Shown here one piece after another: positions 14,578 through 17,490 of a DNA stretch of 64,000 nucleotides; positions within the stretch are counted from its first letter, which is position 1, and each line of letters opens with the position of its first letter. The stretch is from NCBI RefSeq assembly GCF_030384885.1, contig NZ_CP128613.1. One strand, 5' to 3'. The notes under the pieces were generated by a model, which worked only from the letters and a program-made list of their open reading frames with translations, did not search any database and was not told the DNA's origin. A program made the position numbers and the translations under genes. The stretch comes from Escherichia coli (lineage in GTDB: Bacteria > Pseudomonadota > Gammaproteobacteria > Enterobacterales > Enterobacteriaceae).

Positions 14578-14717
14578 AAGGAGTCCCTCCGCACTGACTG
14601 AAACAGTGCAGAAATGTCTTCAGGCGTGGCGAAGCCTTACCTGAAGGTAATAAAGCTGAGCTGGGACGTTAAAACGTCACGGCCTTACGCATCCGGTAAC
14701 GCCGTGAAAAGACGGGC
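14578..14717 (-). promoter_or_regulatory. mgtA 5-prime leader (Mg2+/proline-responsive attenuator region) between mgtL and mgtA
   Basis: Position between the mgtL stop and the mgtA start; established leader architecture. Confidence 0.7.
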
Positions 14718-14771
14718 TTACCGGAAAAGTTTTAATCTCCGTCGAGGGAGAGGCGTGGGATCAGGTTCCAT
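14718..14771 (-). CDS. mgtL: mgtA leader peptide
   Basis: 17-codon proline-rich [20 protein letters not shown] upstream of mgtA. Confidence 0.82.
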
Positions 14772-14864
14772 ATAACCTCCGATAAGTGAAAAAAGCGCCG
14801 CAAATAATAAGGAGAATCCAATAATATTCGTGGCATTTATGGCGATATAATACCTACTGGCAAC

Positions 14865-14881: not shown

Positions 14882-14953
14882 AGACTTTACCCATTGCTGA
14901 ATGCACGGGTAAAGTTAGGCTCAAATAATGAAACGCAATTACGGGACAACAGG

Positions 14954-15901
14954 ATGCAAAATCGGCTGACCATCAAAGACATCGCGCGCTTAAGCGGCGT
15001 GGGGAAATCTACGGTTTCCCGAGTGCTGAATAACGAAAGCGGCGTGAGTCAGCGCACGCGCGAGCGCGTGGAAGCAGTGATGAATCAGCATGGATTTTCC
15101 CCTTCCCGCTCCGCGCGCGCTATGCGTGGGCAAAGCGATAAAGTGGTCGCCATCATTGTTACCCGTCTGGATTCGTTGTCAGAAAATCTCGCCGTCCAAA
15201 CCATGCTGCCAGCGTTCTATGAACAAGGTTACGACCCGATCATGATGGAAAGTCAGTTTTCTCCGCAATTAGTTGCCGAACATTTGGGGGTGCTGAAACG
15301 GCGTAATATCGACGGCGTAGTGCTGTTCGGTTTTACCGGCATAACCGAAGACATGTTAGCCCACTGGCAGTCATCGCTGGTTCTGCTGGCGCGTGACGCA
15401 AAAGGCTTTGCTTCGGTCTGTTATGACGACGAAGGGGCAATCAAGATCCTGATGCAACGGCTGTATGACCAGGGGCATCGTAATATCAGTTATCTCGGCG
15501 TACCGCACAGTGACGTGACGACCGGTAAGCGACGTCACGAAGCCTACCTGGCGTACTGCAAAGCGCATAAACTTCATCCCGTCGCCGCCCTGCCAGGCCT
15601 TGCGATGAAGCAAGGCTATGAGAATGTCGCAAAAGTGATTACCCCTGAAACCACCGCGTTACTGTGCGCAACCGACACGCTGGCACTTGGCGCAAGTAAA
15701 TACTTGCAAGAGCAACGCATCGACACCTTGCAACTGGCGAGCGTCGGTAATACACCGTTAATGAAATTCCTCCATCCGGAGATCGTCACCGTTGACCCAG
15801 GTTACGCCGAAGCCGGACGCCAGGCGGCCAGCCAGTTAATTGCGCAGGTAACCGGGCGCAGCGAACCGCAACAAATCATCATCCCTGCCACCCTATCCTG
15901 A
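14954..15901 (+). CDS. treR: Trehalose operon repressor (LacI family)
   Basis: 315 aa from MQNRLTIKDIARLSGVGKSTVSRVLN... (HTH_LacI) followed by a periplasmic-binding-like domain. Confidence 0.93.
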   Translation: MQNRLTIKDIARLSGVGKSTVSRVLNNESGVSQRTRERVEAVMNQHGFSPSRSARAMRGQSDKVVAIIVTRLDSLSENLAVQTMLPAFYEQGYDPIMMESQFSPQLVAEHLGVLKRRNIDGVVLFGFTGITEDMLAHWQSSLVLLARDAKGFASVCYDDEGAIKILMQRLYDQGHRNISYLGVPHSDVTTGKRRHEAYLAYCKAHKLHPVAALPGLAMKQGYENVAKVITPETTALLCATDTLALGASKYLQEQRIDTLQLASVGNTPLMKFLHPEIVTVDPGYAEAGRQAASQLIAQVTGRSEPQQIIIPATLS

Positions 15902-15940
15902 TCGTTTCCTGAACGATAAATTGTGATCTTCGCTGCGTTT

Positions 15941-15954
15941 CGGGAACGTTCCCG
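15941..15954. promoter_or_regulatory. Candidate TreR operator in the treB promoter
   Basis: Perfect 14-bp palindrome CGGGAACGTTCCCG about 65 bp upstream of treB; a second palindrome ATCGTT-N5-AACGAT at 15901-15917. Confidence 0.6.
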
Positions 15955-16019
15955 TTTTTAAATTTTTCCGCGCACTATATTCTGCAGCCAACCAAAAATG
16001 TCATCTGCCATGGGGCTTT

Positions 16020-17441
16020 ATGATGAGCAAAATAAACCAAACGGATATCAATCGGTTGATTGAACTGGTCGGCGGTCGCGGCAATATTGCGACGGTGAGC
16101 CACTGTATTACTCGCCTGCGCTTTGTCCTCAACCAACCGGCCAATGCCAGACCGAAAGAGATTGAGCAACTCCCCATGGTGAAAGGCTGTTTCACCAATG
16201 CCGGGCAATTTCAGGTGGTAATTGGCACCAACGTGGGTGATTACTATCAAGCGCTGATAGCGACGACCGGACAGGCGCAGGTTGATAAAGAGCAGGTGAA
16301 AAAAGCTGCCCGGCAGAATATGAAATGGCATGAGCAGTTGATCTCTCATTTCGCGGAGATCTTCTTCCCGCTGCTGCCCGCGTTGATTAGTGGTGGTTTG
16401 ATCCTCGGTTTTCGCAATGTGATCGGCGATTTGCCCATGAGCAACGGTCAAACGCTGGCGCAAATGTACCCTTCCCTGCAAACGATCTACGATTTTCTAT
16501 GGTTGATCGGTGAAGCGATCTTCTTCTACCTGCCGGTCGGAATTTGCTGGTCAGCGGTGAAAAAAATGGGCGGCACGCCGATCCTCGGTATCGTGCTTGG
16601 CGTGACGCTGGTTTCCCCACAGTTGATGAACGCTTATCTGCTCGGGCAGCAGCTACCGGAAGTATGGAACTTTGGCATGTTCAGCATCGCCAAAGTGGGC
16701 TATCAGGCACAGGTTATTCCGGCACTGTTAGCCGGGCTGGCGCTGGGCGTGATAGAAACTCGCCTTAAGCGTATCGTGCCGGATTATCTCTATCTGGTGG
16801 TGGTGCCGGTCTGTTCGCTGATCCTCACGGTGTTCCTCGCCCATGCGCTGATTGGTCCGTTTGGTCGCATGATTGGCGATGGCGTTGCCTTTGCGGTGCG
16901 TCACCTGATGACCGGCAGCTTTGCCCCCATTGGTGCGGCATTGTTTGGCTTCCTTTACGCACCGCTGGTGATCACCGGCGTACACCAGACCACGCTTGCT
17001 ATAGATTTGCAGATGATTCAAAGCATGGGTGGCACGCCAGTGTGGCCGCTTATTGCGCTGTCGAATATCGCTCAGGGCTCCGCCGTGATAGGCATTATCA
17101 TTTCCAGCCGCAAGAGCAATGAACGCGAGATCTCCGTGCCTGCCGCTATCTCCGCCTGGCTTGGGGTCACTGAGCCTGCAATGTACGGCATCAACCTGAA
17201 ATATCGCTTCCCGATGCTGTGCGCGATGATTGGTTCTGGTCTGGCAGGATTACTATGCGGTCTGAACGGCGTTATGGCGAATGGCATCGGCGTAGGCGGC
17301 CTGCCGGGAATTCTCTCTATTCAACCGAGCTACTGGCAAGTGTTTGCGCTGGCAATGGCTATCGCCATCATCATCCCGATTGTACTCACCTCGTTTATCT
17401 ACCAGCGGAAATACCGCCTGGGTACGCTGGACATTGTTTAA
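16020..17441 (+). CDS. treB: PTS trehalose-specific EIIBC component
   Basis: 473-aa ORF MMSKINQTDI...; EIIB cysteine motif (SHCITRLR) and multi-pass EIIC domain. Confidence 0.95.
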   Translation: MMSKINQTDINRLIELVGGRGNIATVSHCITRLRFVLNQPANARPKEIEQLPMVKGCFTNAGQFQVVIGTNVGDYYQALIATTGQAQVDKEQVKKAARQNMKWHEQLISHFAEIFFPLLPALISGGLILGFRNVIGDLPMSNGQTLAQMYPSLQTIYDFLWLIGEAIFFYLPVGICWSAVKKMGGTPILGIVLGVTLVSPQLMNAYLLGQQLPEVWNFGMFSIAKVGYQAQVIPALLAGLALGVIETRLKRIVPDYLYLVVVPVCSLILTVFLAHALIGPFGRMIGDGVAFAVRHLMTGSFAPIGAALFGFLYAPLVITGVHQTTLAIDLQMIQSMGGTPVWPLIALSNIAQGSAVIGIIISSRKSNEREISVPAAISAWLGVTEPAMYGINLKYRFPMLCAMIGSGLAGLLCGLNGVMANGIGVGGLPGILSIQPSYWQVFALAMAIAIIIPIVLTSFIYQRKYRLGTLDIV

Positions 17442-17490
17442 TTTTCTTCGGGGCGCAATTGCGCCCCCTCGTATTTGCAGGAATAACGTA

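Follow-up and report, generated by a model that had tools for sequence, protein, structure and literature searches.

A single TreR operator probably controls treBC in Escherichia coli, next to a clade-restricted inverted repeat at the end of treR

The closest described system to the region analyzed here is the treBC operon of Escherichia coli K-12, where work by Horlacher and Boos in 1997 reportedly placed TreR, by DNase protection, on a palindrome immediately preceding the -35 element of treB, and where trehalose-6-phosphate is said, from the same work, to lower TreR binding. The operon is repressed by TreR unless trehalose-6-phosphate is present (PMC3938415), and treR lies upstream of treB, outside the treBC operon. 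More broadly, a survey of the LacI family found that 1251 of 1303 motifs were even palindromes and that 1173 of the 1303 carried a central CG, the sites being located mostly 30 to 140 bp before the start codon (PMC4052901). Two other well-described arrangements come to mind when a pair of palindromes is found near one promoter, namely, the lac operators O1, O2, and O3 bound by tetrameric LacI and the gal operators OE and OI bound by GalR together with HU; their likeness to the treR-treB region consists of just this pairing and is superficial. A further likeness may be offered by lac-type class I promoters, with CRP near -61, which would share with the present locus an upstream TGTGA half-site, a weak -35 element, and a repressor site overlapping the region contacted by polymerase.

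The locus lies in a 64-kb window (the whole stretch of E. coli DNA that was analyzed), and both the open reading frame list and the RefSeq annotation give the gene order mgtA (minus strand), mgtL (minus), treR (plus), treB (plus), and treC (plus). The queried kilobase is 100% identical to that of strain 2013C-4282, in which treR and treB are annotated in the same way, and 95 to 99% identical to that of almost every other complete E. coli genome. The treR-treB intergenic setting that the original prediction had given to two palindromes is borne out by the open reading frame list and by the annotation of this 100% identical E. coli record. The features on which the following analyses are based, with the two palindromes designated P1 and P2, are these.

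14954 to 15901, plus strand: treR, encoding the LacI-family trehalose repressor (open reading frame list and RefSeq annotation concordant).
15901 to 15917, no strand: P1, the inverted repeat ATCGTT-TCCTG-AACGAT (ATCGTTTCCTGAACGAT), with 6-bp arms and a 5-bp spacer, seen in the sequence.
15919 to 15940, no strand: putative CRP site, centered at 15929.5, whose left half is perfect (TGTGA, 15922 to 15926) and whose right half is degenerate.
15938 to 15958: wider conserved block around P2, TTTCGGGAACGTTCCCnTTTT.
15941 to 15954, no strand: P2, the perfect 14-bp palindrome CGGGAACGTTCCCG, assigned as an operator by its conservation and its LacI-family form.
15955 to 15960, plus strand: inferred -35 element of the treB promoter, TTTTTA, abutting the operator, with 17 bp separating it from the conserved -10 element.
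15978 to 15983, plus strand: inferred -10 element of the treB promoter, TATTCT, with T15978, A15979, C15982, and T15983 each at least 80% conserved.
16020 to 17441, plus strand: treB, encoding the PTS trehalose EIIBC component, with which the regulated treBC operon begins (open reading frame list and annotation).

Counted from the K-12 start, the treR product has 315 amino acids, and the gene ends with a TGA stop codon at 15899 to 15901, the final base of which is also the first A of P1. The spacer between treR and treB is 118 bp long. From the treR stop to the treB start, a single mismatch to K-12 MG1655 was found, at 15975 (C here, A in K-12); because the spacer is identical save for this one base, what is known from K-12 is directly transferable to the window. 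The K-12 treBC operator of TreR belongs to the same locus and to the same DNA from the treR stop through the operator, the -35 element, and the -10 element, again with the exception of 15975. In K-12 coordinates, P1 lies at 4466283 to 4466299 and the conserved block around P2 (window 15938 to 15958) at 4466242 to 4466262. Across 5,417 E. coli genomes, the spacer is almost without variation, and intraspecific comparison therefore cannot separate P1 from P2.

The two palindromes do lie upstream of treB and 40 bp apart, as had been predicted, with P1 preceding P2, the reverse of the order in which they had been listed. The 40 bp are counted from start to start; from center to center, the distance is 38.5 bp, and 23 bp lie between the two elements. 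P2 is followed immediately on its 3' side by TTTTTAAATTTTT. As a class, perfect 14-bp palindromes show no enrichment here: the window has 5, against 4.6 ± 1.9 expected under a first-order Markov model, while the expectation for any given 118-bp spacer is 0.0085. P2 is accordingly unusual for its position, and its apparent significance derives from conservation (described below) and not from palindrome statistics. The window contains 31 inverted repeats that combine 6-bp arms with a 5-bp spacer, against 17 expected; for 6-bp-arm repeats summed over spacers of 0 to 10 bp, the expectation is approximately 0.35 per 118 bp. P1 taken alone therefore stays within what chance would give and needs independent support. 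Rfam contained no family matching the spacer.

To compare the region beyond E. coli, TreR was used as the query against one genome per bacterial species, which gave 80 Enterobacteriaceae loci with TreR 82 to 98% identical; treB follows treR within 110 to 260 bp in 73 of them. Conservation was scored against the window sequence over 75 distinct Enterobacteriaceae spacers. The first homologue search covered relatives with at least 85% identity only, and the 50%-identity representatives, searched for distant TreR, contained full-length relatives at 47 to 52% identity. One locus (L085) was left out, as its assembly was C-to-T converted, apparently from bisulfite-type reads. The conservation found along the spacer is as follows.

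15901 to 15917: P1, mean conservation 0.50, equal to background.
15922 to 15928: TGTGATC, the CRP half-site, conservation 1.00.
15942 to 15953: GGGAACGTTCCC, the 12-bp core of P2, conservation 1.00.
15955 to 15958: TTTT, conservation about 0.9.
15978 to 15983: the pattern TAnnCT, in which each of the four specified bases scores 0.8 or more, with flanking bases not conserved.
Nonfunctional stretches of the spacer: conservation 0.3 to 0.5.

The distance between two of these elements is likewise fixed, with a gap of 13 nt from TGTGATC to GGGAAC in all 75 distinct spacers. Among the distant relatives, the lineages L086 and L087/L088, in which TreR is 47 to 49% identical, have treR, treB, and treC in unchanged order, and a single copy of GGGAACGTTCCC occurs upstream of treB in each; in L087, this copy again stands 13 nt after TGTGATA. 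Only E. coli and a few further genera have G as the 14th base of P2, all others having A, so the conserved unit is a 12-bp palindrome with TTTC and TTTT flanks. P1 shows a different distribution, being alignable only within Escherichia and Citrobacter. Its stem is broken in one Escherichia lineage (L003, with AACTAT), and most Citrobacter genomes have lost the outer pairs, with P1 degraded there; in Salmonella, Enterobacter, Klebsiella/Raoultella, Kosakonia, Kluyvera, and others, unrelated sequence occupies its position, while TreR and the operator are conserved.

Considering its form together with this conservation, P2 is, as far as DNA can tell, the TreR operator of treBC, which is already known. 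It reads CGGGAAC followed by GTTCCCG, is of even length, and is centered on CG, in agreement with the palindrome rule of the LacI family; its center lies 72.5 bp upstream of the treB ATG, and the adjoining treR encodes a LacI-family protein. With the core present in 75 of 75 distinct spacers and once each in L086 and L087/L088, it also stands out as a phylogenetic footprint. Moreover, when the TreR 14-mer was sought with up to 3 mismatches, P2 was the sole match in the tre region; the two other matches in the window, at 7089 and 24642, have 3 mismatches each and are at chance level. The position of P2 matches that of the protected palindrome upstream of the treB -35 element, which we take to be the one footprinted in 1997. 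Neither a footprint nor an operator sequence for E. coli TreR was found in the full-text literature searched, which does not extend to the primary papers of 1995 to 1998, and a search of that literature for GGGAACGTTCCC returned a sole match, in an unrelated Streptomyces paper.

Comparison with other operators of the family separates the two palindromes. P2 resembles the PurR box (ACGCAAACGTTTGCGT) and the CcpA cre sites in its even palindromic form, its central CG, its AACGTT core, and its place beside a LacI-family gene, and it differs from them in its outer, specificity-determining bases, GGG and CCC, which are specific to TreR. P1, on the other hand, is off the pattern of LacI/GalR-family operators, as its spacing is odd and it lacks a central CG. 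The proposal that one or both palindromes are TreR operators accordingly held for P2 (even and palindromic, with CG at its center and an invariant core, retained in distant lineages and adjoining the -35 element) and found no support for P1, which combines an odd spacer and the lack of a central CG with 5 mismatches and background conservation. To our knowledge, P1 has not been described as a TreR site in the K-12 literature.

The surroundings of P2 suggest how it may act. If transcription starts at 15990 or 15991, as judged from the conserved -10 element, the center of the putative CRP site falls at -60.5 to -61.5. The treB transcription start would thus lie near 15990, and the positions around -43 and -61 quoted here may be off by a few bases. 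The spacing between the -10 element and the operator is equal in E. coli, Citrobacter, and Enterobacter. A promoter consensus scan gave no match for the treB promoter, as is expected of a weak, activator-dependent promoter, and in the portion of the tables of Ettwiller et al. (2016) that was available, no transcription start coordinate matches the spacer. A layout of this kind would be that of a class I CRP promoter with a repressor placed between CRP and the -35 element. In this respect the locus would differ from lac, where O1 lies over the transcription start, whereas the repressor here would be centered at about -43 relative to the inferred start.

Our main reading, to which we assign a probability of roughly 85%, is that the region is an ordinary and already characterized treBC control region with a single TreR operator, P2, and that P1 has no part in the switch. 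According to this model, one TreR dimer would bind one operator, P2, situated between the upstream CRP site and the directly downstream -35 element, with its center about 43 bp before the inferred start. TreR at P2 would block the contacts of RNA polymerase at the -35 element as well as CRP-dependent recruitment, and trehalose-6-phosphate would release it. The binding of TreR to the P2 palindrome, the role of trehalose-6-phosphate as inducer, and the dependence on CRP are presumably the parts of this model that earlier work on K-12 already contains. The present analysis itself shows where the elements lie, how far they are conserved, that the tre region has a single TreR-like site, and how the domains of TreR are arranged; the -35 and -10 elements, the start, and the way in which TreR represses are deductions. 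What phylogenetic footprinting contributes is that the control of treBC appears to rest on a single operator, GGGAACGTTCCC, at a fixed distance from the CRP half-site and abutting the -35 element, and that this layout is kept from E. coli to lineages in which TreR is only 47 to 49% identical. Its importance beyond correct annotation is small, and a tempting reading with two operators and looping is removed as unsupported.

P2 may have a second use, as P2 and its T-run could terminate treR transcription. It would then serve as an operator in the form of DNA and, in the form of RNA followed by a U-run (UUUUUAAAUUUUU), as an intrinsic terminator limiting read-through of constitutive treR transcription into treBC, with bound TreR possibly adding a roadblock. 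A terminator consensus scan flags 15941 to 15954 with the T-run (2 matches in 500 bp against 0.7 expected), and the flagged stem, with 5 pairs of which 4 are G-C, a 4-nt loop, and then TTTTTAAATT, matches the consensus of a stem plus U-tract. Furthermore, treR is reported to lie outside the treBC operon, and therefore some stop signal must exist; the spacer offers no stronger hairpin elsewhere, and conservation also extends to the ATTTT/GTTTTT run that follows the palindrome. However, the stem is weak, with 5 bp and -6.9 kcal/mol in E. coli and 4 bp and -5.4 kcal/mol in most genera, compared with -17.8 kcal/mol for the treC terminator, and the functions of operator and -35 element fully account for the conservation of both the palindrome and the T-run. 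In addition, among the 3' ends listed in the available part of the Term-seq data of Adams et al. (2021), none falls within K-12 4466181 to 4466298, where the weak expression of treR has to be kept in mind. Termination of treR at P2 is possible, but we regard it as unlikely.

P1 is probably an incidental, clade-restricted inverted repeat and at most a small, clade-specific RNA stem at the 3' end of treR. A functional variant of the latter, in which P1 as RNA forms a stem-loop at the treR 3' end that stabilizes the mRNA against 3' exonucleases, or that causes pausing or termination before the CRP site, appears improbable to us. Unrelated repeats do occur directly after the treR stop in other genera, including AGCGTC-N4-GACGCT in Leclercia (-9.7 kcal/mol), AGCCTC-N4-GAGGCT in Silvania (-10.0 kcal/mol), and a 16-bp palindrome in one Kluyvera lineage. 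Within Escherichia and Citrobacter, the four inner base pairs of the P1 stem are largely retained, and a compensatory change from U-A to C-G is seen once. Nevertheless, the covariation is barely above that of the controls, with 80.8% of cells paired against 78.0% in shuffles, and with counts of 36 and 30 of 500 shuffles for sequences that are related to one another. In E. coli the stem reaches no more than -4.6 kcal/mol, and the sequence after it, AAAUUGUG, is no U-tract; the disruption of the stem in L003 and the lack of any RNA 3' end at P1 among those listed in the accessible part of the data of Adams et al. (2021) also argue against such a role.

To look for a hairpin after the treR stop that would be common to the family, 70 distinct segments, each reaching from the stop codon as far as TGTGATC, were folded. 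The resulting signal was patchy, with z-scores scattering around 0 and 24% of them below -1; the majority of genera lack a significant hairpin at this place, which also speaks against an RNA role of P1, and a family-wide RNA hairpin was rejected as a candidate.

The two RNA-level ideas can also be combined. In that case, the operator would double as terminator, a repressor roadblock and RNA structure would jointly insulate treBC from treR, and P1 might be an additional element at the 3' end of the treR mRNA; we hold this combination to be doubtful, and a simple operator at P2 remains our preferred reading.

It is very unlikely that TreR occupies both P1 and P2, with dimers that cooperate or loop out the intervening 38 bp and strengthen repression in a manner similar to that of LacI at O1/O3 or GalR at OE/OI. 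The structure of the repressor bears on this. According to Pfam, TreR consists of a LacI HTH domain and a Peripla_BP_3 domain; its residues 61 to 315 match PDB 4xxh (TreR) with an E value of 5e-166, and the 315-amino-acid protein aligns to residues 4 to 321 of the 360 residues of LacI. As this alignment ends at about LacI residue 321, TreR is without the C-terminal tetramerization helix; LacI has this helix, whereas TreR ends at the equivalent of residue ~321. TreR has moreover been reported as dimeric. The auxiliary operators of lac and gal resemble the main operator and are conserved, whereas P1 is unlike P2, being 17 bp long with an odd 5-bp spacer, centered on a single C and devoid of a central CG. 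It is also not conserved, while TreR and P2 are invariant, and the distant TreR lineages (L086 and L087/L088) have a single site.

Several observations could nevertheless be cited for a second site. According to PMC3505978, two operators for TreR are given at treBC in RegulonDB; these could be the half-sites of P2 or could include a second site. The same paper describes a LacI-TreR chimera whose behavior is consistent with looping. GAACG, a part of the P2 half-site, also occurs within P1, and a weak pseudo-site, CCTGATCGTTTCCT (15897 to 15910), lies 44 bp from the center of P2, close to four helical turns. This pseudo-site is, however, the best register over P1 and has mismatches to the TreR 14-mer at 5 of 14 positions, with 0.33 such sites expected per spacer. 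The center-to-center distance of 38.5 bp amounts to 3.67 helical turns and is out of phase, tandem LacI-family spacings peak at 13, 22, and 32 bp (PMC4052901) and not at 38.5 bp, and the DNA between P1 and P2 is taken up by the putative CRP site. The cooperative binding or looping that had been suggested from the spacing is therefore unsupported, considering that there is no second TreR-like site, no tetramerization helix, and no helical phasing and that a putative CRP site intervenes.

Least credible of all, and close to negligible in our estimate, is that P1 is bound by a regulator other than TreR and CRP, acting at about -81, just upstream of the CRP site: P1 does abut the CRP site, where upstream coregulators or the second alpha-CTD of RNA polymerase might act, but it is not conserved outside one clade and is within chance expectation, and the literature searched mentions no such regulator of treBC. 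As a side comparison made by eye, P1 was also considered as a Cra or GalR operator and rejected, the AACGAT core alone being held in common.

The link between the operator block and treB, rather than treR, is illustrated by insertions. In two Enterobacter species (L037 and L047), an insert of approximately 1.8 kb containing Hcp follows treR, and the operator block remains with treB; it likewise remains with treB in one HB101 assembly that carries IS1 in the spacer.

The spacer between treR and treB differed from that of K-12 at a single base, position 15975, which is C in the window and A in K-12 (CAATATATT to CACTATATT); the inferred -10 hexamer begins 3 nt further downstream. A larger change was observed in the E. 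coli HB101 assembly (NZ_CP184671.1, locus L084), where the spacer is interrupted by the following element:

L084 2549-3335, IS1A, flanked by the 9-bp target duplication CGTTTCGGG

The insertion point corresponds to the position after 15944 in window coordinates, leaving ∼0.78 kb between the CRP half-site and the intact TreR operator, promoter, and treB. Judging from this arrangement, the separation of the CRP half-site from the promoter by IS1A could alter catabolite control of treBC in HB101, a laboratory strain.

Other treR loci compared with the window also differed from it downstream of treR, in the following segments:

L005 (Escherichia sp. E1V33), L006 (E. whittamii), L030, and L035, from about 3446, sequence downstream of treR
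L037 1611-3330 (Enterobacter chuandaensis) and L047 3446-5225 (E. quasihormaechei), insert of ∼1.8 kb

Within the 2.5 kb examined downstream of treR, neither the CRP/operator block nor treB was present in L005, L006, L030, and L035, and treR appears from the sequence to be orphaned in these four loci. In L006, an unannotated 614-amino-acid open reading frame (ORF) without a Pfam match lies downstream of treR on the opposite strand. The insert in the two Enterobacter loci is located after the treR stop codon and before the CRP/operator block. Two coding sequences lie within it on the opposite strand, namely, a gene for Hcp (type VI secretion) and a 230-amino-acid ORF without a Pfam match. In addition, the Logan contig of SRR18107613 (L085), recovered in the search for distant TreR relatives, was an enterobacterial tre locus in C-to-T converted form, with TTTCGGGAACGTTCCCATTTT reading as TTTTGGGAATGTTTTTATTTT, and was apparently assembled from bisulfite-type reads. 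Thus, the representative P0126 derived from this contig, a "TreR at 52% identity," was rejected as an artefact.

Within the operon, one structure was identified in the treB-treC spacer:

17450-17467, hairpin GGGGCGCAATTGCGCCCC, containing a perfect 14-bp palindrome

Its folding energy was -15.8 kcal/mol, and no U-tract accompanies it. In the Term-seq tables of Adams et al. (2021), the treB 3' end listed at K-12 4464728, just past this hairpin, is "primary" and very abundant, suggesting that the treB-treC junction is a point of intra-operon processing, protection, or attenuation. The same tables place an RNA 3' end at K-12 4466176 (window about 16024), where the 5' untranslated region (UTR) ends, 4 nt into the treB ORF. 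This 3' end could belong to a short RNA derived from the 5' UTR or mark a regulated premature stop. The UTR block CATCTGCCATGGGGC (16003-16017) was moderately conserved across genera.

At the other end of treR, the RefSeq start in the identical strain precedes that of K-12 by 57 nt (334 versus 315 amino acids), and the ORF list opens treR at a TTG codon at 14894 (region 14894-14953); the longer start is probably over-extended. The divergent mgtA-treR region contains one further element:

14671-14786, minus strand, Mg2+-responsive mgtA leader (Rfam RF01056, 122 bits)

This leader lies alongside mgtL between mgtA and treR, as expected for the locus.
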